A DNA stretch of 64,000 nt from Roseibium aggregatum (GCF_014692675.1 NZ_JABFCZ010000013.1:1-64000); one strand, 5' to 3'; counted from the first letter of the stretch, positions 1 through 32,400 are shown. Notes: a model not told the origin generated them from the sequence alone. A program made the numbers and translations.

Positions 1-11
1 AACTGACCAGC

Positions 12-284
12 ATGGCCGTTCTCAAATGGTGTCAGGAGACTGGCGTCGACTGGCACTACATCCAACCGGGAAAGCCGATGCAGAACGGTTTCGTCGAGAG
101 CTTCAACGGTAGTTTCAGGGATGAATGCCTCAACGAAACACTGTTTTCGTCGCTCGCCGAAGCCAGGTCCAAAATCACATCATGGAAGGACGACTACAAC
201 CGAAACAGACCCCACTCATCCCTGGGCAATCTCACGCCCTACGAATTCGCATTGAAAATGACATTGCAAACACAGGCCGCATGA
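12..284 (+). mobile_element. IS3-family transposase OrfB C-terminal fragment (DDE/rve integrase core), 5'-truncated by the window edge
   Basis: 90-aa ORF with typical IS3 OrfB C-terminal residues ([24 protein letters not shown]...[14 protein letters not shown]). Followed by 250 bp of AT-rich DNA that may contain the IS right end. Confidence 0.75.
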
Positions 285-546
285 GGTCAAAAATCAACCG
301 AAGGACTCCGCGCTAAACCGGACGAGGATCGGGTCTCAGGTCATGGCCAATGCCGCCGTCGCCCGGAGGTGGTCCTGCAAGGCCTGCCAATCGCTTTGAT
401 CTTCAGCGGAACCTGAATGGGCATAAAACATGGATAACTAAAAGTTCCAATTTCTCCACCCACAGCTTACACGAGCTATACTAAATTAAAATCATCAAAA
501 ACTTACGGAGCATCAAAAGATAACAATGGCTCCAAAGTCTAAAATA

Positions 547-1089
547 CTAAACGTTCAAAAGTGCTATTGCATCCTGGACTGGCATGAACAACCGAAGCTG
601 AGAATTCTGCAAAGGCGTGAAACCATATCCGGAATATAAGGTAAGTCTTCGCTTTGTGGCCTCTTCATTTCCGCAATCAAGTACATCCATCAGGACCACA
701 GAGATACCGAGTGTCTCGGAAGCACGGGCGAGGTTCTTAAGAGCCTCAACGAGCAGAACGCCGCCTATTCCGTTGCCCTGAAATCTTTGATCAACGCCAA
801 TCATCGAAATATAGGCGGCAGGGATTGACCCGTGGCTAGGCCTTGCCCGAGCATACTTTTTTGGAAGATCCCCATAAGCAATTGTGTGCGCGTTGACAGC
901 ATAGAAGCCCAACAATTGGTCTCCCGCGTCGATTAGAACAGATACTCGCACATTCCCGGCTTTTTGAAGCTTATTCGCGGTTTTCCTAAAATAGTTATCG
1001 ACTTGGTCTACGCCGCATGAAAAAGCCGTCCGATCGTGTTTATCCGGATCGAACGGCTCGAATTTGAGGGGCCGCGAAATATTACTCAC
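547..1089 (-). CDS. GNAT-family acetyltransferase toxin (TacT/KacT-like) of a type II TA pair. The listed ORF extends to 1221, but the probable start is the GTG at 1089, which overlaps the antitoxin stop.
   Basis: Acetyl-CoA-binding motif QRFQGNGIGGVLLVEAL. Sits immediately downstream of, and 8 bp overlapping, a DUF1778 antitoxin gene. A ~180-aa product fits this toxin family. Confidence 0.7.
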   Translation of the reverse strand: MSNISRPLKFEPFDPDKHDRTAFSCGVDQVDNYFRKTANKLQKAGNVRVSVLIDAGDQLLGFYAVNAHTIAYGDLPKKYARARPSHGSIPAAYISMIGVDQRFQGNGIGGVLLVEALKNLARASETLGISVVLMDVLDCGNEEATKRRLTLYSGYGFTPLQNSQLRLFMPVQDAIALLNV

Positions 1090-1393
1090 TGCCGGCAACC
1101 ATCTCCTTATGCAGCTTTGCAGCGGCCAACAGCTTTTCCGTTGGAGCGGCCGGGCGCTCAAGAGCGTCAAAGAACGCAGCATGATCGACGGGCGCCAGCA
1201 TCGTTCGTTCGTGCGCCGCAATCACATCCTGCGCACGCAGCAATGCTGCATTGGTCGTAAATGTGCTGAGATCCATGCCGGAGAGTTCAGCGGCCTTTTC
1301 AATGGCCGCTTTTATCGAGGCTTTCGTACGGATGTTCAGCCTGGCATCGCTCTTCTCAGGCAGAGAAGATACGAGATCCGCTGCTCCCAACAT
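1082..1393 (-). CDS. DUF1778-family (ribbon-helix-helix) antitoxin partner of the GNAT toxin
   Basis: 103-aa ORF with an RHH-like N-terminus (SDARLNIRTKASIKAAIEKAAELSG). Lies upstream of, and overlaps, the GNAT gene, matching the canonical TacA/TacT arrangement. Confidence 0.7.
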   Translation of the reverse strand: MLGAADLVSSLPEKSDARLNIRTKASIKAAIEKAAELSGMDLSTFTTNAALLRAQDVIAAHERTMLAPVDHAAFFDALERPAAPTEKLLAAAKLHKEMVAGSE

Positions 1394-1518
1394 TGACGCC
1401 TCCTTTGTTTGCGTGGCTCGAAGGGTAAACTCTTTGCTTAATGTACGTCAACTAGACGCACATTTCAAGTTTAAGACCAACCCAACTAATTAAGCGTCAG
1501 CGCACCAACATTGAAAGG

Positions 1519-2001
1519 TTAGTTCGATGAACCATCTGCCGTATCGAAACGTGAATTGGCCGGGAACTTCCGATCAGATGCATCAACAAACTTCCATCCC
1601 TTTTCGCCGGACTTCCGGGCTTCTCTGAGAGAGGTGGCTTTCCAAGCTCCCAGGAGTCTTTCGAGCCGATCAATCAAAAAGAGCTGATAAAACGCGTAAA
1701 TCGTCAAACCTCCAAGCCCAATCCAACAGACGGTGGTTGTTTCCAGCACGCCGCGAAACAGCAGAAAAGCAGCAAACATTGGTAGGGCTAGCGCGCACAA
1801 GGAAATGGCTTTGCTTCGGAGAGCATTCCGCTTCCAGAATTGGAGAATTTCCTCTTCACTCAAAATTCGGCGCTTCTTCCGATAGAAGGAGAGCCCGCTA
1901 AATAAGCTATCACCGCCTTCTAGATCAGACGTTTCAGAAAACTTCTTATTCAGCAATGAAAGAAGTGCTTCAGAAATCGCTTCCGCCTTTTCGCTTTTCA
2001 T
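1519..2001 (-). CDS. Hypothetical small membrane protein (2 predicted TM helices) co-oriented downstream of the XRE regulator
   Basis: 160-aa ORF with a hydrophobic core (ISLCALALPMFAAFLLF...CWIGLGGLTIYAFYQLFLI). There is a 7-bp gap after the XRE gene. Low-GC codon usage. Confidence 0.5.
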   Translation of the reverse strand: MKSEKAEAISEALLSLLNKKFSETSDLEGGDSLFSGLSFYRKKRRILSEEEILQFWKRNALRSKAISLCALALPMFAAFLLFRGVLETTTVCWIGLGGLTIYAFYQLFLIDRLERLLGAWKATSLREARKSGEKGWKFVDASDRKFPANSRFDTADGSSN

Positions 2002-2008
2002 GCAGCTC

Positions 2009-2404
2009 TCACATGACCGTATTAAATATTCTCTTGAGCTCTTTATCCCCGAAATCTCTTCCAGAAATTACCTCTTCATATACAAATCGAATTAACTTGG
2101 CCTTCCTCTCAAGAGGCGGCTCCAAATCATTCATTTTTGCAAATTTTTCCACAGCAAGAACGGCAGCCTCAACCAATTCACCATTCATGTCGCTTTTTAT
2201 TTGCCCTTCCCCCAGAATAAGCCAAGCAGGCGATACGCCGTATTCCTCGCAAATCCTAGCAATCAAGCCGACCGGAACGGGCGAAGCTCCTCGCTCGTAG
2301 TTCTTGTAAGAGCTCTGCGATACACCGAGTTTTTCCGCAAACGGGATCTGCGAATATCCAGCATTCTCACGAACAACCGCTAATCGTTTACCGATATCAG
2401 ACAC
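2009..2404 (-). CDS. XRE-family (Cro/cI-type) HTH transcriptional regulator
   Basis: N-terminal HTH_XRE signature LAVVRENAGYSQIPFAEKLGVSQSSYKNYERG; 131 aa. Confidence 0.75.
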   Translation of the reverse strand: MSDIGKRLAVVRENAGYSQIPFAEKLGVSQSSYKNYERGASPVPVGLIARICEEYGVSPAWLILGEGQIKSDMNGELVEAAVLAVEKFAKMNDLEPPLERKAKLIRFVYEEVISGRDFGDKELKRIFNTVM

Positions 2405-2507
2405 TTCTGGGTTGACCTTGGTACATAATTTTGTACTAAGTAGGAAATACTAACTTCCTACGACGCTAAAGCTAAGTTTTTCATACCAGTGGAGAAAATT
2501 CGATACA

Positions 2508-2720
2508 ATGGCTCTGGGATTGGAAACGATCAAAGAACTGGCCGACCGGACCGGTTGGCCTAAAAGCCGCATTCGCAAGCTCGTCGAAAATCGGGAACTG
2601 CGACACGTGAGGATCGGTGGCGGAATTTTCATTCCAAATGGCGCGATTGAGGAATTCATCAAGAACAATACGATTGCGCCGATTGTTGAAACGCCCACTC
2701 GTTCCCCTTCAAGGGCTTGA
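2508..2720 (+). CDS. AlpA/excisionase-like small HTH DNA-binding protein
   Basis: 70-aa ORF with an HTH_17-like motif (IKELADRTGWPKSRIRKLVENRELRHVRIGGGIFIP). Lies directly upstream of the integrase. Confidence 0.6.
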   Translation: MALGLETIKELADRTGWPKSRIRKLVENRELRHVRIGGGIFIPNGAIEEFIKNNTIAPIVETPTRSPSRA

Positions 2721-2995
2721 CCTTATCCATGACTGCAATGCCCCATTCGCAGAAACACGCTCGGTCAGCGAAGCTAGCTGTCAGCCGCTCTACTGCCGCC
2801 GACATGCTCGACATTTCACCAACCACATTCGACACATGGGTCGGCCGCGGCTGGATGCCCAAAGGTTACAAGATTGGAGGGCTTAGACGATGGTTTGTCG
2901 ATGACCTCCGGTCGAGCCTTCACGATCTGACAGAGGCGAACTCAACCGTAGAAGATGAAGACGCTGAAAATCCGTTCGACTATGCCGTCGGCTAA
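2717..2995 (+). CDS. Second excisionase/HTH_17-like DNA-binding protein; its stop overlaps the integrase start
   Basis: Motif STAADMLDISPTTFDTWVGRGWMPKGYKIGGLRRW is typical of phage excisionase-family HTH proteins. Confidence 0.55.
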   Translation: MTLSMTAMPHSQKHARSAKLAVSRSTAADMLDISPTTFDTWVGRGWMPKGYKIGGLRRWFVDDLRSSLHDLTEANSTVEDEDAENPFDYAVG

Positions 2996-4214
2996 TCGAA
3001 AGAAGATTCCGTTCAAATATTGTTCGGCAGATGTTGACCGGCACGGCAACGTCCGGATTTATCTGCGTCGGCCGGGTCTGCCTAAATACCGGATGCAGTC
3101 GTCCTACTTGGATGATAACGGCAATATTACCGAGGCATTTGCCGCGGAATATCATCGCGTTATGGCAGGCAACGTCGATCAGGTATTGAACACAAAACCC
3201 GACGAGTGGAAACCAGGCTCAATTGGTTGGCTGTTTGCTCAATATCAGCGATCGAAGACTTTTCAGGAGCAGGATCAGGCGACCCAACGGGACAAGCATA
3301 GCGTTTTAGGGCGCTATTGCGCAACTGTTGGTCATCTGCCGTTCCAGATGCTCAGGAAGTCTGATGTCGAAGCCAGCCAGATGAAACGTCGCGAAACGCC
3401 TGCGGCGGCTGACAAGCTCGTGAAATATCTGAAAGCCCTTTTCAATTGGGCGTTGAGCGACCTTGATCTTATGGCCCGGTTTCCAGTGCCCAGAAATCCG
3501 GCTGAAGGGATCTCGAAGATCAGCCGCTCCGACGGTTTTCATACCTGGTCCGCAATCGAAATTTCCACTTTCCGAGAACATTATCCGCTTGGCACTACAG
3601 CTCGCTTGGCGTTTGAACTGCTTTATAATCTGGGCATTCGCAGGTCGGATCTTGTTCAACTCGGTCCAGGCAACCTCGATGGTGACACATTCAAACTGGT
3701 CCCGCAGAAAGGCAGCAAGAATGAGCTGCTCGTCCTGCCGATCACGAGAGCCCTCATGGCCGCGCTCAGGCACGCCCCAGAAGGCCAGGAAACATTCTTG
3801 ACGACCGAGTTCGGTAAGCCATTTAGCTCGAACGGTTTCGGTAACAAAATGCGCGACTGGTGCGATACAGCGGGCCTGAAACAGTGCTCTTCTCACGGCC
3901 TGAGAAAATCCGCTGCGACCGTGCTGGCCGAAGCCGGTGCCACGGAATATCAGCTCATGGCGGTCTTCGGCTGGAGCGATTCAAAAACTGCTCGGATCTA
4001 CACCAAGAAGGCCGAGCAAAAACGTCTCGCCAAGTCGGCGTTCGAACATCTTGAAGTTTCAACAGAACGGAAAAATGTCCCACTTTCTCGTCACAGCAAA
4101 CCGAGTGGGACAAAAAGAGGAAAAAATGCTGGAAAATCAACACCCCAAAAGTGGAGTGGTGGGCCCGGAGGGACTCGAACCCCCAACCAATCCGTTATGA
4201 GCGGACGGCTCTAA
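2982..4214 (+). CDS. int: Tyrosine-type site-specific integrase (phage integrase family). The ORF reads through into the tRNA gene, so the 3' end is uncertain.
   Basis: Catalytic-region motifs RSDLVQL...HGLRKSAAT...Y (ARIYTKK). The C-terminus overlaps tRNA-Met, as is typical for tRNA-targeting integrases. Confidence 0.85.
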   Translation: MPSANRKKIPFKYCSADVDRHGNVRIYLRRPGLPKYRMQSSYLDDNGNITEAFAAEYHRVMAGNVDQVLNTKPDEWKPGSIGWLFAQYQRSKTFQEQDQATQRDKHSVLGRYCATVGHLPFQMLRKSDVEASQMKRRETPAAADKLVKYLKALFNWALSDLDLMARFPVPRNPAEGISKISRSDGFHTWSAIEISTFREHYPLGTTARLAFELLYNLGIRRSDLVQLGPGNLDGDTFKLVPQKGSKNELLVLPITRALMAALRHAPEGQETFLTTEFGKPFSSNGFGNKMRDWCDTAGLKQCSSHGLRKSAATVLAEAGATEYQLMAVFGWSDSKTARIYTKKAEQKRLAKSAFEHLEVSTERKNVPLSRHSKPSGTKRGKNAGKSTPQKWSGGPGGTRTPNQSVMSGRL

Positions 4215-4233
4215 CCAATTGAGCTACAGGCCC
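4157..4233 (-). tRNA. tRNA-Met (anticodon CAT; initiator versus elongator versus Ile-lysidine not resolved), CCA encoded
   Basis: The minus strand reads GGGCCTGTAGCTCAATTGGTTAGAGC-GTCCGCTCATAACGGATTGG...GGTTCGAGTCCCTCCGGGCCCACCA. It has a 7-bp acceptor stem, D, anticodon (CAT) and T arms, and is 77 nt long. Confidence 0.85.
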
Positions 4234-8725: not shown

Positions 8726-9136
8726 GTGATATGCTTCCCGCATATAGCGTGGAAACCCGGGCTGGAGGGTGTGGTGTCTCTGGGCGATATCGGATTTCTG
8801 ATTCAATATGCCGTTCTGCCGTGGCTGCTGCTGTTCTTCGCGGTGATCGCGATCCAGATCCTGCGCGGTGACATCAACACCAGGGGGCTGCTCCGCACCC
8901 GGTCCGGAAACCGGGACATCGATCCGGAACGGGTGGCGATCCTGGGCACGACCCTGTTCGCCGCCGGCGCCTATCTCGTATCCGCCCTGCATCAGGGCGC
9001 GGTTTATGTCGAAGCCACCCATTCCTATCAGATGCCCGACATACCGGACGCGCTTCTGGTCGTCCTGACCGGCAGCAACGGGGTTTATCTCGGCGGCAAG
9101 ATCATGCGCAAGACACAAGGGGACACCAGGTCATGA
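8726..9136 (+). CDS. Hypothetical small integral membrane protein (about 3 TM); first gene of a 3-gene cluster with the nuclease
   Basis: Hydrophobic segments (FLIQYAVLPWLLLFFAVIAIQIL; AILGTTLFAAGAYLVSAL). Its stop overlaps the next ORF's start (ATGA at 9133-9136). Confidence 0.45.
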   Translation: MICFPHIAWKPGLEGVVSLGDIGFLIQYAVLPWLLLFFAVIAIQILRGDINTRGLLRTRSGNRDIDPERVAILGTTLFAAGAYLVSALHQGAVYVEATHSYQMPDIPDALLVVLTGSNGVYLGGKIMRKTQGDTRS

Positions 9137-9675
9137 GCAACGGTTCGCAACCAAATCGCAACCCGACCGGTCTGAGGGGCGACGCGATATTGTTCACCTT
9201 CGCATTCGTGTTCGCCATTGTCGCGATCAGCGCGGCGGCCTTTCACTACCAGGTCAAGCCGAAGGACATCGCCGTCCTGGGCTTCATCGCCTTTTCCATC
9301 ATCATCCTGGCGTTTGCCGCGGCGGTGCTGTGGCAGCTTGCGACCGGCACGATCAAGCTCGGCGGCCTGATTTCCGAACCGCTCCAGCCGGGCGAGAGCG
9401 GGCCCTATGGCAAGGCCAGCCTGTCCCGGTTCCAGTTCCTGATCTTCACCTTCGTCATCGCCGGGCTGTTCCTGATGCTGTGCATCGAGACCGGCGGCTT
9501 TGTCGAAATCCCGCCGAACGTGCTTGGCCTTCTGGGCATCAGCGGCGGCGGCTTCATCGTCTCCAAGGCGGTTGGCCTGCCGAAGCAGGATAACCAGTCC
9601 AACGCAGGCGGCCAGGGTGCCGGCGGTCAGGGTGCAGGCGGTCAGGGCGGCGACCAGGGAGGTGGTCAGTCCTGA
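9133..9675 (+). CDS. Hypothetical integral membrane protein (about 4 TM) with a Gly/Gln-rich repeat tail
   Basis: TM segments, then the C-terminal QSNAGGQGAGGQGAGGQGGDQGGGQS. Translationally coupled to the upstream ORF. Confidence 0.5.
   Translation: MSNGSQPNRNPTGLRGDAILFTFAFVFAIVAISAAAFHYQVKPKDIAVLGFIAFSIIILAFAAAVLWQLATGTIKLGGLISEPLQPGESGPYGKASLSRFQFLIFTFVIAGLFLMLCIETGGFVEIPPNVLGLLGISGGGFIVSKAVGLPKQDNQSNAGGQGAGGQGAGGQGGDQGGGQS
9594..9662 (+). repeat. Short imperfect tandem repeat (GGYSAGGGYGCMGGC units) encoding (QGAGG)n
   Basis: ggcggccagggtgccggcggtcagggtgcaggcggtcagggcggcgaccagggaggtggtcag; a possible slippage-prone coding repeat. Confidence 0.6.
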
Positions 9676-9716
9676 AGCGCCGATGCCGGCAAGGGCCAGA
9701 AAGGAGCAGGCGGCGG

Positions 9717-10845: not shown

Positions 10846-11346
10846 ATGTCTGTCAGCCAGCCCGCATCCTACAGTCGTGCCCAGATCATCCTGCACTGGG
10901 TCATTGCCCTCATCGTCTTTTTCCAGCTGATCTTCGGCGAATCGATTGCCGAATACGGCCACGTGCTACGCGAAGGCACAACGCCCGATTCCGGCCTCGT
11001 CATCATGGCCAATGCGCATATCTGGTCCGGGGTTGCGATCCTTGTCCTGATGCTCGCGCGCATTGCCCTGCGCCTCTCCCACGGTGCGCCCGCGCCCATT
11101 TCCGGCCCGAAGCTGCAGGTCATGGTCGCCAAGGCGATCCACGGGCTGTTTTACCTGCTCCTGATCGCAGCACCGCTGACCGGCCTTGCCGCCTGGTATT
11201 TGAAGATCAGACCCGCCGGCGAGGTCCATGAATGGATGAAGCCGGTGTTCATCGTGCTGATCGCGCTGCACATCGTCGGTGCCCTGTGGCACAAGTTTGT
11301 GCTCAAGGACGCCACAATGCAGCGGATGGTTTCCTCCAGCGCATAA
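10846..11346 (+). CDS. Cytochrome b561 family protein (CybB-like)
   Basis: Four-TM di-heme topology with conserved His residues (ILHWVIAL...; ANAHIWSG...; HGLFYLLL...; ALHIVGALWH). Confidence 0.75.
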   Translation: MSVSQPASYSRAQIILHWVIALIVFFQLIFGESIAEYGHVLREGTTPDSGLVIMANAHIWSGVAILVLMLARIALRLSHGAPAPISGPKLQVMVAKAIHGLFYLLLIAAPLTGLAAWYLKIRPAGEVHEWMKPVFIVLIALHIVGALWHKFVLKDATMQRMVSSSA

Positions 11347-11353
11347 CGCGGGT

Positions 11354-12454
11354 TCAGTCCCGCGCCTCAAGCCAGATCCGCGCCTGATCCACGTCGCCGG
11401 AGAGCACGCCGGAGGCGACCTTCTGTCCGACGACCGCGCCGAACTTGTAGCCGTGTCCGGAGCACGCGGAGACGGCGACCACCTTGCCCCGCTCGCTCAG
11501 GAAGAAATGCTCGTCAGCGGTGAAGGTATAGGCGCAGGTGACCACATCGGCGACGCCGTATTCCCCGATCCGCGCAAACGGCGGCGAGAAGTAATCGCGA
11601 ATGGTTTCGCCCTCGCCCGCCGCCGCGACCCGATCGGCATCCGGCGTGGTCACATATTTATGGCAGCCCGCGCCGACCTTCAGCCCCGTACCGGCCACCG
11701 GCGGCAGCACGTAGCCGTCGACCTTGCCGCCCACGTCCAGAATGACCGGCCCCTTTTCCCAGTGCGGTTTGAGATCCGCCGGCGGCGTCAGATAGGCAAC
11801 CGCCGTGCGATAGGTGGTCAGGGACGCAGCAAGATCCGGAAGAAGACCCAGGACCCAGGCCCCGGCGGTTACAACAACCCGGTCGGCCGTCAGCTCGTCG
11901 CCGTTCTCAAGCCGCACGCTGCCCGATGTCTCGTCGAGGGAGACCACCCGCGTGTTCTCGCGCACATCCACCCCGATGGCGATCAGCCAGTCGCGCATGT
12001 CCGACGCGATCCTCTGGCACAGCAGCACCCCGCCTTCCTCGCTGTAGGCGCCGAAGCGGATCGTGCTGCCGTCGATGAAGGGAAAGCGCTCGCCGGTTTC
12101 CGCCGGGCTCATCTCATCAAACGGATAACCGCCGGCAATCAGGCCGTCCCGGTATTCCTCGCCTTCGTCGCCCGGTTCCTGCGACAGAAGCAGGAAGCCG
12201 GTATCGACCAGGTGCTTACGGCCGAGATCTTCCCACATCTGGTCCCAGGCGTCATAGGCCGCGCTGATGCGCCGCTGATAGCCGCCCTGTCCGCCATAGG
12301 CCCGGCGGATGATCCGGTGCTGGTCGCCGGACGCCGACAAAGGATTGGGGATCGGCCCCTGTTCGATGAGCGTGACGTCCGCATCCTGCCGGGCCAGCGC
12401 CCAGGCGGTGGACAGGCCGGAAATGCCGGCGCCGACAACGATGATTTTCATGTG
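11354..12454 (-). CDS. FAD-dependent oxidoreductase (DAO superfamily)
   Basis: N-terminal Rossmann motif MKIIVVGAGISGLSTAW. The listed ORF starts 21 codons upstream, at 12517. Confidence 0.7.
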   Translation of the reverse strand, partial: HMKIIVVGAGISGLSTAWALARQDADVTLIEQGPIPNPLSASGDQHRIIRRAYGGQGGYQRRISAAYDAWDQMWEDLGRKHLVDTGFLLLSQEPGDEGEEYRDGLIAGGYPFDEMSPAETGERFPFIDGSTIRFGAYSEEGGVLLCQRIASDMRDWLIAIGVDVRENTRVVSLDETSGSVRLENGDELTADRVVVTAGAWVLGLLPDLAASLTTYRTAVAYLTPPADLKPHWEKGPVILDVGGKVDGYVLPPVAGTGLKVGAGCHKYVTTPDADRVAAAGEGETIRDYFSPPFARIGEYGVADVVTCAYTFTADEHFFLSERGKVVAVSACSGHGYKFGAVVGQKVASGVLSGDVDQARIWLEARD

Positions 12455-17202: not shown

Positions 17203-17273
17203 TCACATGATGCTAATCGGTATAGCGCCGGGTTACCGCCCGGAGAAAGCAGGTTCGACTCCTGTCGTGTGAA
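17203..17273 (+). other. tRNA-like sequence with a degenerate anticodon arm; probable tRNA remnant
   Basis: Perfect 7-bp acceptor pairing (TCACATG/CGTGTGA), a 4-bp D stem and a T-arm-like GCAGG-TTCGACT-CCTGT. The anticodon arm can only form with a 6-nt loop. Confidence 0.4.
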
Positions 17274-17345
17274 CACGGATAGCTCAGTTGGTAGAGCATC
17301 GGACTTTTAATCCGACGGTCGCGGGTTCAACTCCCGCTCCAAGAG
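17273..17345 (+). pseudogene. tRNA-Lys(TTT)-like gene with intact D, anticodon and T arms but a non-complementary acceptor 3' strand
   Basis: ACACGGA-TA-GCTC-AGTTGGTA-GAGC-A-TCGGA-CTTTTAA-TCCGA-CGGTC-GCGGG-TTCAACT-CCCGC-TCCAAGA. Only 4 of 7 acceptor pairs form, where TCCGTGT is expected. Confidence 0.55.
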
Positions 17346-27646: not shown

Positions 27647-28093
27647 TTAGTTGGCGGCCACCAGTTTGTTCAACGCCGTCAGGACGGTGTCGACTTCGGT
27701 AACCTGCTCGTCCAGAAGCGCCTTCTGCTCGTGCAGCATTTCCTGCTGCGCCTGGCAGATGCCCTGAAGTTCGCGATACTGGTCGCCTTTCGGCGTATCG
27801 CTTTCCACCAGCTTGATCACGCGGCGGATTTCCGCCAGCGTCAAACCGATCTTCTTGGCCTGCAGGATAACCCGCATCCGCCCGACATCCCTTGAGCCGT
27901 AAAAGCGGCGCGCACCCCGCCTTACAGGATGAAGGAGGCCTTTTTCCTCATAAAACCGGAGTGTTCGGAGTGTGACGCCGAACAGTTCCGACATCTCGGA
28001 AATCGCAAGAACCTCGTTTTCGGTTGCGGCATCTTCAACCGGCCCCGCGATATCCGGAACGGCGACTATGTTCATAGCTATGTTGTTCATCAA
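27647..28093 (-). CDS. MerR-family transcriptional regulator
   Basis: HTH ISEMSELFGVTLRTLRFYEEKGLLHPVRRGARRFYGSRDVGRMRVI, followed by a coiled-coil region. Confidence 0.8.
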   Translation of the reverse strand: MMNNIAMNIVAVPDIAGPVEDAATENEVLAISEMSELFGVTLRTLRFYEEKGLLHPVRRGARRFYGSRDVGRMRVILQAKKIGLTLAEIRRVIKLVESDTPKGDQYRELQGICQAQQEMLHEQKALLDEQVTEVDTVLTALNKLVAAN

Positions 28094-28940
28094 ACTTGCC
28101 CGATAGTTTCTCGTTATTTTGCACGGTCAGGCGACTATCCGGCATTCAACGACACGGCCCACCTCCGTATTCATCGAATCCCACACGCCGGATACTCAGG
28201 ATCGCTGCAACCCCTATCGCTACACATGACTGACAGGCACAACAGCGGCCGACCCCATACCGCGAAAGCTTTCACATAACTCTCTTACACTATTTTCGAA
28301 CAGCTAATCCACGTCGTTTTCAAAAATTTGGCGCGAATTGCCAAAAAATAGCATTTTTTTAATAAGAGAGATGTTTTCACAACACATAAACTGCAACTTA
28401 TGATTTTTATGCAAATTTTGCAGAGAAGCACAGCTTCGAAGTCGCTTTATTATATTAATTATCGATAATATTTACATGAAATATACGTTTGAAAATAAAG
28501 CCAGCGTATAAACAAATGTCCAGATAAAAAACGAGCTTCCATCCTCTTCGCCGGCGAAAAGATAAACAACGACCTCTGTAGAAACGTCAATATTCCAGAG
28601 TGATCTATTCGGCTTTGTTTTATTTGTTAACAATTCCGGCTCGAATAGTCTCAGCTTGAACAGTTTGAAATGCAACCGACACGAAGGTCAACGCCCCCTT
28701 CGAAAAAAATGCAGGAAAACAACACTAGAAGCCAAATACTTTCACGCATGAGACGATTTGTCCGGGCAACCGCCCTCTTCGGCAATTGTGGCACATAGTG
28801 CACTTGCGCATTGACAGTCCGGCCGGTTCGAGATTTTTCTGTTTCCGGATGAAGCTTATGTGGCGCTTCACTATTTTGTCGGTTAAGGAGTTCCCGGCTC
28901 CGGCTTTGCACCCGGGAAGGACCGCCGGCGCCGGAATCGA
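28094..28940. promoter_or_regulatory. Unusually AT-rich (~40% GC) 850-bp divergent intergenic region with no convincing ORF
   Basis: The 28280-28700 stretch is dominated by A/T runs (aaaaaatagcatttttttaataagagag...). The only ORFs listed here have implausible composition. Lies between the MerR start and the HTH/carB genes. Confidence 0.5.
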
Positions 28941-29024
28941 TTGAACCGCCGAACACGAGAGACTTCGGACATCTTGCCCGCAAATGCGCGGATATTTGCT
29001 CGACCGGCAAGCACGATAGAAGAC

Positions 29025-29300
29025 ATGGCCGATACAAAAAATTCAAATGGCGCCCCTGTAATGAGCCCCGACCAGTTCCGTGAATGGCGTCGGTCGCTCG
29101 GGCTGAAGCAGAAGGAAGCCGCCGAACAGCTGGGTCTCAAGAAGCGGATGATCCAGTATTACGAAAAAGGCAACCGGGATGGCCGGCCGGTCGAAATTCC
29201 GAAGTCGATTCGTCTCGCCTGCTATGCCCTGTCGGAAGGAATCGGCGATTTTGACGGCAATAATGTCCTGCCGCCCGACGAAGCTCCGGCCAAGAATTAA
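29025..29300 (+). CDS. Small XRE-like HTH DNA-binding protein upstream of carB
   Basis: HTH motif MSPDQFREWRRSLGLKQKEAAEQLGLKKRMIQYYEKG. Start placed at the internal ATG at 29025. Confidence 0.6.
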   Translation: MADTKNSNGAPVMSPDQFREWRRSLGLKQKEAAEQLGLKKRMIQYYEKGNRDGRPVEIPKSIRLACYALSEGIGDFDGNNVLPPDEAPAKN

Positions 29301-29469
29301 CGTTTTGCGCGCCAACGCGCTGTGAAAAAGGAATTTAGCCCCCGCGCGGGGTTTCCACGCCTCACAGTTTTCCCTATAAGACGCGCTCAGCCAACATTGA
29401 CACTCATAATGGAACGAGCCGAACCGGCGGGCAGCCATGCCTGCACGGAAACGGCCGATGCGAGCCCCG

Positions 29470-32400
29470 ATGCCAAAACGTACTGACATCTCCTCAATTC
29501 TCATCATAGGCGCCGGTCCGATCGTGATCGGCCAGGCCTGCGAATTCGACTATTCCGGTACGCAGGCCTGCAAGGCACTTCGAGAAGAGGGCTACCGCAT
29601 CATCCTGGTGAATTCGAACCCGGCGACGATCATGACCGATCCGGACCTGGCCGATGCCACCTACATCGAGCCGATCACGCCGGAGATCGTCGCCAAGATC
29701 ATCGAGAAGGAACGCCCCGACGTCCTGCTGCCGACCATGGGCGGCCAGACGGCGCTCAACTGCGCGCTCGATCTGGAAAGGATGGGCGTCCTTGAAGAAT
29801 TCGGCGTCGAGATGATCGGCGCCCGGGCCGACGTCATCGAAAAGGCGGAAGACCGCGAGAAATTCCGCGCCGCCATGGATGTCATCGGCCTGGAGAACCC
29901 GCGCGCCGCCATCGCCTCGTCTCCGGAAATCCGGAACGAGAAGGGCAAGATCATCGGCTACGACCGTGCCACCGGCGTCCTGGAGGCCATGAAGGCGCTC
30001 GACGACATCGGCTTGCCCGCCATCATCCGCCCGGCCTTCACCCTCGGCGGCACCGGCGGCGGGGTTGCCTACAATCGCGAGGAATTCGAAACCATCGTCC
30101 GCTCGGGGATCGACGCGTCACCGGTCGGCCAGGTGCTGATCGACGAAAGCCTGCTCGGCTGGAAGGAGTACGAGATGGAAGTGGTCCGCGACAAGGCGGA
30201 CAACTGCATCATTATCTGTTCCATTGAAAACGTCGATCCGATGGGCGTTCACACCGGCGACTCGATCACCGTTGCGCCCGCGCTGACGCTCACCGACAAG
30301 GAATACCAGATCATGCGCGACGCCTCGATTGCGGTGCTGCGCGAGATCGGCGTGGAAACCGGCGGCTCGAACGTGCAGTTCGCCGTCAATCCGGACAACG
30401 GCCGCCTTGTCGTCATCGAAATGAACCCGCGCGTGTCGCGCTCCTCCGCACTTGCGTCCAAGGCGACAGGCTTCCCGATCGCCAAGATCGCGGCCAAGCT
30501 TGCCGTCGGCTACACCCTGGACGAGCTGGAAAACGACATCACCGGCGGCGCGACCCCGGCCTCCTTCGAACCCTCCATCGACTATGTGGTGACGAAGATC
30601 CCGCGCTTTGCCTTCGAAAAGTTCCCCGGCTCCGAACCGGTCCTGACCACGGCGATGAAATCCGTCGGCGAAGTGATGGCGATCGGCCGCAACTTTGCCG
30701 AAAGTCTGCAGAAGGCGCTGCGCGGCCTTGAAACGGGTCTGACCGGACTGGACGAGACCGAGATTGCGGGCCTCGATCAGGGCGACGACAAGAACGCGAT
30801 CCGCGCCGCGATCTCCGTCCCGACGCCGACCCGGCTCCTCAATGTCGCCCAGGCCATGCGGCTTGGCATGAGCCTTGAGGAAATCCATCAGGCCTGTTCC
30901 ATCGATCCCTGGTTCCTGGAACAGATCGCCGATATCGTTGAAATGGAAGACAAGGTGCGCACGCACGGTCTGCCGCAGAACACCCAGATGCTGCGCAAGC
31001 TGAAGTCCATGGGCTTTTCCGATGCCCGGCTGGCCTCTCTTGCCGGCAAGGACGAGGCCGACATCGCGAAGCTGCGCGCGGAGCTTGACGTGCACCCGGT
31101 CTACAAGCGCATCGACACCTGCGCGGCGGAATTCGCCTCCCCCACCGCTTACATGTATTCCACCTACGAGGCTCCCTTCATGGGCAAGCCCGCCTGTGAA
31201 GCGGCCCCGACCGACCGCAAGAAGGTCGTCATCCTGGGTGGCGGACCGAACCGGATCGGCCAGGGGATCGAGTTCGATTACTGCTGCTGTCATGCAGCCT
31301 TCGCCCTGGACGAGGTCGGTTATGAAACCATCATGATCAACTGCAACCCGGAAACGGTCTCCACCGACTACGACACCTCCGACCGGCTCTACTTCGAGCC
31401 GCTGACTGCAGAGGACGTTCTGGAGATTATCCGCAAGGAGCAGGAAAACGGCACGCTGCACGGCGTCATCGTCCAGTTCGGCGGCCAGACGCCGCTGAAG
31501 CTCGCCCAGGCGCTGATGAAGGCCGGCGTGCCGATCCTCGGTACCTCGCCCGACATGATCGACCTGGCGGAGGACCGTGACCGGTTCCAGAAACTTCTGG
31601 TCAAGCTCGGCCTGAAGCAGCCGGAAAACGGCATTGCCTATTCCGTCGAACAGGGCCGGCTGATCGCGGGCAAGCTCGGCCTGCCGCTGGTCGTGCGCCC
31701 GTCCTATGTGCTCGGCGGCCGGGCCATGCAGATCATCCGCGACGAGGAAGCGCTCAATTCCTACCTGCTCGGAACCCTGCCCGAACTCGTCCCCGGCGAC
31801 ATCCGGGCGAAGTATCCGAACGACAAGACCGGCCAGATCAACACCCTGCTCGGCACCAACCCGCTGCTGTTCGACCGCTATCTGGACGGGGCGGTAGAGG
31901 TGGACGTGGATGCGCTGTGCGACGGCAAGGACGTCTTCGTCTGCGGCATCATGGAACATATCGAGGAAGCCGGCATCCACTCCGGCGATAGCGCCTGTTC
32001 CCTGCCGCCCTACAATCTGTCGAAGGACATCATCGAGGAACTGAAGCGCCAGACCACCGCCCTTGCCCTGGCCCTCGAGGTCGGCGGGCTGATGAACGTG
32101 CAATATGCCATCAAGGACGGCGACATCTATGTCCTGGAAGTCAACCCGCGCGCTTCGCGCACCGTGCCTTTCGTCGCCAAGACCATCGGCGACCCGGTCG
32201 CCAAGATCGCAAGCCGCATCATGGCGGGCGAAAGCCTCGCCTCCTTCGGACTTGTGGAAAAGAACCTGAAGCACGTCGCCGTCAAGGAAGCCGTCTTTCC
32301 CTTCACCCGCTTCCCCGGCGTCGACACGGTTCTCGGCCCGGAAATGCGTTCAACGGGTGAGGTCATGGGCCTCAACGGCGCCTTTTCCACCGCATTCGCC

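Follow-up and report, generated by a model that had tools for sequence, protein, structure and literature searches.

The integrase gene, its attachment core and its target tRNA

The stretch analysed here, referred to below as the window, comprises 64,000 nt from Roseibium aggregatum (GCF_014692675.1 NZ_JABFCZ010000013.1:1-64000). Next to a tRNA gene with the anticodon CAU, its left end carries a tyrosine integrase gene (int), two genes for excisionase-like proteins (xis1 and xis2), an XRE-type regulator gene with an adjoining membrane-protein gene, a GNAT/ribbon-helix-helix toxin-antitoxin pair and a piece of an IS3-family insertion sequence (IS). Positions 344-4172 are very probably the integrase-proximal end, on the side of the right attachment site (attR), of an integrative genomic island in the Roseibium chromosome, of which about 3.8 kb is visible. 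All of the above genes had been listed in a first-pass annotation of the same DNA, and each was recovered in place. The lower GC content that it had noticed to the left of the tRNA was also borne out, being 0.50 across 344-4156 as compared with 0.62 in the following 10 kb and 0.60 in the whole window.

The integrase open reading frame (ORF) matches Phage_integrase (PF00589, E 4e-19) and the phrog_1 integrases, and the catalytic residues R229, K252, H314, R317, W340 and Y349 are all present in its translation; a comparison with PDB sequences returned no match. As had been observed at first pass, the 3' ends of int and of the tRNA gene overlap, the int frame covering the 3' 58 nt of the tRNA gene on the opposite strand. 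Within this overlap int reads the attachment (att) core as GGPGG; 13 further codons (TRTPNQSVMSGRL) follow, and then a TAA stop, complementary to the TTA of the D-loop. With a core of no more than 16 nt, these last 13 codons (407-419) and the stop fall in host DNA, antisense to the tRNA gene. The identical frame, with its stop inside the tRNA, was found in about 32 of 40 related loci, and attP-like junctions have another int tail (in locus L030, 20 different residues). In the excised circle, element sequence would replace the last 13 codons, an exchange that is probably neutral for Int since it lies well beyond the catalytic Tyr349.

The segment is present in some Roseibium genomes and absent from others, in agreement with the first-pass proposal of an island that such a comparison would reveal. 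For instance, an uncultured Roseibium (L082), whose AI-2E transporter is 92% identical to that in the right flank of the window, has an identical tRNA and a syntenic right flank and no island; homology to the window runs through the whole tRNA and ends about 2 nt past its 3' end, consistent with insertion at this point as first suggested. Three more Roseibium lineages (L083, L085 and L086/87) have kept the tRNA, AI-2E and SIMPL genes and lack the integrase module. The left flank is different in each of the lineages examined (L082, L083, L085 and L086), and the 3' side of the tRNA is thus a recombination hotspot in Roseibium. Sister islands were identified in a Roseibium metagenome-assembled genome (MAG; L002, 89% identical Int), in R. 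algae (L003, 66%) and on a contig from a metagenome (L090, 77%); from the toxin-antitoxin pair to int, their genes are ordered as in the window.

A separate observation concerns L082 itself, where a LysR gene within 8839-9701 stops 1 nt from the tRNA. Its best homologues (81%) are from Rhodobacterales, with none close in Roseibium, which may point to DNA acquired without an integrase at this hotspot. Prediction of the left flank of the window from L082 was rejected, given that this gene has no close Roseibium homologue and that flanks vary per lineage.

A wider scan, limited to one genome per species, yielded 80 loci that encode Int relatives. In about 40 of them, from species of Hyphomicrobiales, int runs with its 3' end into the orthologous tRNA(CAU) gene, at Int identities of 40-89%; these are mostly from Rhizobiaceae (57-60%), with others in Pseudovibrio, Hoeflea, Pseudochrobactrum and Bradyrhizobium. 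More distant Int relatives (below 40%) are located at tRNA-Leu, tRNA-Phe or tRNA-Glu. The XRE, xis1 and xis2 genes accompany int in 30-50 loci. Exact-protein look-ups found no identical TacA antitoxin or xis1 product in other sequences. Two loci, L015 (labelled Arenimonas MAG) and L023 (labelled Nostoc sp. CHAB 5844), hold a Rhizobiaceae-type island and tRNA near-identical to Rhizobium loci, and are probably binning or culture contaminants in their assemblies.

The length of the core follows from junctions in four relatives. In L027 and L028, the int-core-non-tRNA junctions keep exactly 16 nt of identity to the tRNA; L030 has both an int-core-non-tRNA and an int-core-tRNA junction on one scaffold, with an N gap between them; and a left 16-nt copy at 10.5 kb delimits a complete element in L046. 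The core is CCCTCCGGGCCCACCA in the tRNA sense and TGGTGGGCCCGGAGGG on the plus strand of the window (4157-4172). The identical sequence is given in Table S7 of a Mesorhizobium mobilome study (PMC8627217) as the att site of tyrosine recombinases that integrate at 'tRNA-Met (a)'. This site is used by integrative and conjugative elements (ICEs), integrative and mobilizable elements (IMEs) and the IntM step of tripartite ICEs. The direct repeat of about 20-50 nt foreseen in the first-pass annotation has to be shortened accordingly, as both the junctions and the published site give 16 nt for this integrase family. Its placing of the other island boundary outside the window agrees with the search of 1-4156, in which the tRNA 3' segment did not recur and no second core copy was found even with up to 4/16 mismatches allowed.

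Among the relatives, no copy that could mark the left attachment site (attL) lies within 10 kb at most loci, and L046 alone yielded a complete element. A sub-branch in Bradyrhizobium and Afipia (L042 and L047) exhibits a longer identity of about 49 nt, and the Mesorhizobium matches (L073-L077) are partial (43-52%) and without a nearby 16-mer. The L030 scaffold, from Rhizobium mongolense subsp. loessense, has a further peculiarity: at 11185-11383 the two cores are preceded by identical stretches of 79 nt. Its double junction suggests excised or tandem copies in the sequenced culture.

The target gene was called by ARAGORN as a tRNA with the anticodon CAT and scores 66.8 bits with the Rfam tRNA model. 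The first-pass annotation had named it tRNA-Met, a label that probably has to be corrected. ARAGORN assigns labels by anticodon only, so that any CAU tRNA is reported as Met, and this anticodon is common to the fMet, Met and Ile2 tRNAs (PMC8450103). The G1-C72 pair excludes an initiator tRNA. At three further positions in the acceptor and anticodon stems the window tRNA has C4-G69, C5-G68 and C29-G41, which we take to be identity elements of tRNA-Ile2. These pairs are also those of E. coli ileX, annotated as tRNA-Ile, whereas the elongator tRNA-Met gene metT has U-A, A-U and U-A there. Both E. coli reference sequences were checked at 100% identity in annotated genomes. The Rhizobium-type orthologue is identical to ileX at 61/76 positions ungapped, as against 53/79 gapped for metT. 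A distant blastn search of the tRNA against E. coli matched only a variant rRNA-operon tRNA-Ile; as this does not settle Met versus Ile2, it was replaced by the ileX/metT comparison. From these sequence features the target is likely to be tRNA-Ile2(CAU) rather than tRNA-Met, in which case the site name 'tRNA-Met(a)' in the rhizobial ICE literature may be a misnomer and would need correction.

Upstream of the core, the int tail contains an inverted repeat with the arms TGTCCCAC (4076-4083) and GTGGGACA (4105-4112), conserved in an alignment of 21 loci. In the arms 90% of the alignment cells are paired, compared with 29-51% when the partner column is slid, and one compensatory pair, changed on both sides, occurs in the Bradyrhizobium branch. 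Covariation alone was discarded as proof of a structure in the int tail, being too thin: the single compensatory pair probably reflects one event. The fold obtained for the tRNA strand is a 9-bp hairpin with a UUUUU run (4075-4071) behind it, located 44 nt past the tRNA. A second hairpin with a T-run abuts the CCA end of the tRNA. The repeat in the int tail is a candidate for a replacement terminator of the tRNA, or else for a protein-binding site in the P arm.

It is possible, if still short of probable, that the 'tRNA-Met(a)' integrases of Hyphomicrobiales form one uncharacterised family that targets tRNA-Ile2(CAU), in which int obligatorily ends in the host tRNA with 13 host-encoded residues that are swapped on excision, and an antisense hairpin with a U-run replaces the tRNA terminator. 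If so, the amino acid conservation of the int tail (NVPLS...) would reflect a constraint on the nucleic acid and not on the protein.

Gene content of the island end

Table 1. Features of the left end of the window
Feature	Position	Strand	Evidence
IS3-family right end	1..343	+	OrfB C-terminus (3-284), rve_3, end of transpos_IS3 profile, blastn
Non-coding spacer, IS end to toxin gene	344..546	.	No family-matching ORF
GNAT toxin, 179 aa, GTG start (predicted)	547..1086	-	phmmer against PDB, phrog_1758
TacA-type (DUF1778, ribbon-helix-helix) antitoxin, 103 aa (predicted)	1082..1393	-	PF08681
Small protein with two putative transmembrane segments, 160 aa	1519..2001	-	Hydropathy profile
XRE/CI-type helix-turn-helix regulator	2009..2404	-	HTH_3, phage repressor PHROGs
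Divergent intergenic region, 103 bp, candidate operators	2405..2507	.	Sequence reading
xis1, excisionase-family winged-helix protein, 70 aa	2508..2720	+	HTH_17, TIGR01764, phrog_66
xis2, second excisionase-like winged-helix protein, 92 aa	2717..2995	+	phrog_66, HTH_17 matches of family
int, tyrosine integrase, 419 aa	2955..4214	+	PF00589, phrog_1, catalytic residues
Inverted repeat in int tail	4076..4112	-	21-locus alignment, fold
attR core CCCTCCGGGCCCACCA, last 16 nt of tRNA	4157..4172	-	Junctions in relatives, published att site
Target tRNA(CAU) gene, 77 nt	4157..4233	-	ARAGORN, Rfam

For the two excisionase-like genes, the product of xis1 matches HTH_17 (E 2e-7), the 'excise' model TIGR01764 (36.3 bits, with a cut-off of 28.8) and phrog_66. 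That of xis2, taken alone, gives a weak HTH_17 match and a match to the phrog_66 excisionases (E 9e-6); at the family level, 14 of the 18 members match HTH_17 and the profile matches the MerR-like BldC (6AMA). The presence of two excisionases, as called at first pass, is thus supported by the phrog_66 matches of both proteins. They were rejected as recent paralogues, since hhalign detects no similarity between the two family profiles, even though both match excisionase families. The xis2 gene overlaps its neighbours on either side, xis1 and int; in 52 loci it keeps its place immediately before int, and it is likely to encode the recombination directionality factor.

The XRE protein matches HTH_3 (E 1e-12) and phage repressor PHROGs and is kept in about 30 related loci. 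Its gene is divergent from the xis-int genes, and the region between them contains the inverted repeats GTAC-N8-GTAC (2421-2436) and TAGGAA-N8-TTCCTA (2441-2460), which are candidate operators. Downstream of the XRE gene lies that of the 160-aa protein, which has two hydrophobic segments and no match in Pfam, NCBIfam, PADLOC or PHROGs. It is conserved in L002, L003, L090 and L092, and the same position in the Rhizobiaceae islands is occupied by a non-homologous 118-aa protein, likewise with two hydrophobic segments.

The GNAT protein is homologous over near its full length to toxins of solved structure, namely TacT (7AK7, 5e-13), followed by 6G96, KacT (5ZGN) and AtaT (6AJM), with E values from 5e-13 to 1e-8. 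It also matches the phrog_1758 acetyltransferases, and the Pfam GNAT models score under their cut-offs. Its partner has a TacA1 domain (PF08681, E 3e-19). The antitoxin gene comes first and its end overlaps the GTG start of the toxin gene, and a TacA gene is paired with a GNAT gene in more than 30 metagenome loci. PADLOC gave no match for the pair. These features are those of a type II GNAT/ribbon-helix-helix toxin-antitoxin system of the TacT/KacT/AtaT type, in keeping with the first-pass prediction. Across the related islands, the slot beside the XRE and small membrane protein genes (about 1-3 kb upstream of int in L005-L043) is occupied by TacA/GNAT in Roseibium and by HipB/HipA in Rhizobiaceae.

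At the left edge of the window, the OrfB C-terminus has an rve_3 match (E 3e-35), and its frame is open from base 3 to the window edge. The IS3 terminal sequence ...CAGGTCA ends at position 343, the end of the transpos_IS3 profile is matched as well, and IS3 copies found by blastn on more than 1800 plasmids share homology up to this common end at 343/344. The sole other assembly with an identical Int, Logan contig L001 (SRR11673300), breaks at window position 314, 30 nt inside the IS, as is expected from assemblers, which break at such repeats. No further copy of the piece was found elsewhere in the window. The first-pass annotation had described an IS3 remnant that indicated decay or a nested insertion. 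Of these, nested insertion fits; decay is not shown, as the right end is intact and the element is cut only by the window edge. The sequence fits an IS3 element with an intact right end that is nested in the island or borders it. The spacer between IS and toxin gene is not homologous to the related Roseibium islands, the homology to L003 and L090 beginning only at about 569-619.

Outside the island end, a second dip in GC content occurs at 28001-30000 (0.53, with about 0.61 as the reference), and two adjoining tRNA-like pieces lie at 17203-17345. The piece at 17273-17345 (+) scores 60.7 bits with the Rfam tRNA model and has the anticodon loop CTTTTAA, which is Lys-UUU-like; ARAGORN does not call it, and its acceptor stem, examined by eye, pairs at only about three positions. 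For 17203-17274 ARAGORN gives an odd 'tRNA-???'. A pseudo-tRNA or the scar of an old att site may account for the two pieces.

Nature of the element

The gene content of relatives provides some indication of what may lie beyond the left edge of the window. In place of TacAT, HipA was found in 19 loci and HipB in 13. Relatives further carry a type IV coupling protein (T4SS-DNA_transf, 8 loci), a MobA/MobL relaxase-helicase (4 loci), a type I restriction-modification system, and HEPN, DitA-like and ORC/Cdc6-like genes. The cargo of L090 includes an AAA ATPase and an S8 subtilase, and the complete 10.5-kb element of L046, whose Int is 43% identical, contains a Phage_capsid gene. As the cargo varies to this extent, the integrase module serves several backbones. 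By analogy with its relatives, the window element is most likely either an island of the ICE/IME type or a defence and toxin-antitoxin island, and its unseen cargo, as these relatives suggest, may comprise a conjugative or mobilizable backbone together with defence and toxin-antitoxin genes.

In the favoured reading, an IntM-like tyrosine recombinase recombined the 16-bp core of the element with the same 16 nt at the 3' terminus of the tRNA(CAU) gene. This would have rebuilt an intact tRNA at attR, and the original 3' end that was displaced is expected at attL, left of the window. The xis1-xis2-int operon is probably under repression by the XRE regulator, which would act via the inverted repeats of the intergenic region. 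After derepression, Int-mediated excision would be driven by an excisionase-like winged-helix protein that bends the arms; the foremost candidate is the xis2 product, which would be translationally coupled to int. The TacA/GNAT pair may act as an addiction module that stabilises the element, and the IS3-family element may have been inserted later, 200 bp past the toxin gene.

Several points weigh against an integrative island as proposed here. The attL and the rest of the element lie beyond the window, and hence its size and its ability to excise are not visible; nor does L090, the closest relative with more sequence, contain a second core copy within 14.8 kb. The visible 3.8 kb (344-4156) has no relaxase, conjugation or mobilization genes. 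The IS may have damaged the element, and the putative tie to IntM is drawn from the identity of the att cores and the shared order of the genes.

Some of these points would be accommodated by an immobile relic, that is, the integrase end of an old island that has lost attL or most of its body, for example by an IS3-mediated deletion, and is now fixed in this lineage. An IS3-family element only 200 bp past the last island gene, homology to L003 and L090 that ends inside or just past the GNAT gene, and the absence of attL from the window are all compatible with such a loss. However, int, both xis genes and the XRE and toxin-antitoxin ORFs are intact, with the catalytic residues conserved, and the attR core is perfect. 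In addition, sister islands with 66-89% identical Int in other Roseibium show recent mobility of this type of element, and a relic is therefore regarded as unlikely.

A prophage or phage satellite, instead of an ICE, IME or plain genomic island, is more improbable still. The CI-like repressor facing xis-int does form a phage-like module, phage integrases match at up to 36% identity, and the capsid gene is found in L046, which is a distant relative. The visible 3.8 kb nevertheless lacks structural, lysis and replication genes, its PHROGs matches being restricted to integrase, excisionase, repressor and acetyltransferase. Closer relatives (57-60% identical Int) have the type IV coupling protein, relaxase, toxin-antitoxin and defence genes and not virion genes, the closest island, L090, bears the ATPase and subtilase mentioned above, and the same att core serves ICEs and IMEs of Mesorhizobium. 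As for a native chromosomal block that overlaps the tRNA by chance, only the lack of a visible attL would favour it, and it is scarcely credible in view of the 12-point drop in GC, the core identical to a published att site and the same module at the same tRNA in distant genera; the four Roseibium lineages in which the tRNA and right flank occur without the block have in fact refuted it.

For annotation purposes, the integrative island as read here allows the left 4.2 kb of the window to be marked as horizontally acquired DNA, and an exact 16-bp sequence can now be given to delimit the island. The range of the module takes in at least Stappiaceae, Rhizobiaceae and Phyllobacteriaceae; relatives at a greater distance (42-47% identical Int) occur in Bradyrhizobium and Afipia. 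The current understanding of how such elements work is unchanged by these data.

Comparison with known systems

The piece at the left edge shares with the IS3 family the OrfB C-terminal rve_3 domain and the terminal ...CA that are common to hundreds of annotated copies; as only the last 343 bp are contained in the window, the element is known here from its right end alone. For the toxin-antitoxin pair, likeness to TacAT, KacAT and AtaRT extends to full-length homology of the toxin, a TacA/DUF1778 antitoxin and overlapping genes with the antitoxin first. It differs from them in riding as island cargo, in a slot where the relatives from Rhizobiaceae have HipBA, and its function is predicted only.

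In myxophage Mx8, attP lies inside the integrase gene (intP), and integration changes the C-terminus of the integrase, a large segment of which is replaced. The window int frame likewise crosses the crossover site, so that the integrated and excised forms would have different C-termini. Unlike in Mx8, only 13 residues past the catalytic domain are swapped, and little or no effect on activity is expected.

The closest likeness is to the IntM/RdfM/attM system of Mesorhizobium ICEs and IMEs, including the tripartite ICEMcSym1271 (PMC5882170, PMC8627217). In both, the same tRNA(CAU) gene carries the 16-nt core CCCTCCGGGCCCACCA at its 3' end, and the gene of the tyrosine recombinase is directly preceded by one for a MerR-like winged-helix excisionase. 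RdfM is a MerR-like winged-helix protein that is needed for excision and whose gene lies directly upstream of intM (PMC5882170), and xis2 is in the rdfM position. A type IV coupling protein and a relaxase are likewise found on elements that carry relatives of the window Int. The window element differs in its host, Roseibium, a member of Stappiaceae, in having two excisionase-like genes and an adjoining XRE and membrane-protein pair, and in showing no conjugation genes within the window; the two systems are likened by att core and gene order. A marine Roseibium element is thereby linked to the attM-type recombination module of the Mesorhizobium symbiosis ICEs, and it is an ordinary tRNA-borne integrative island, a further member of this already described group.

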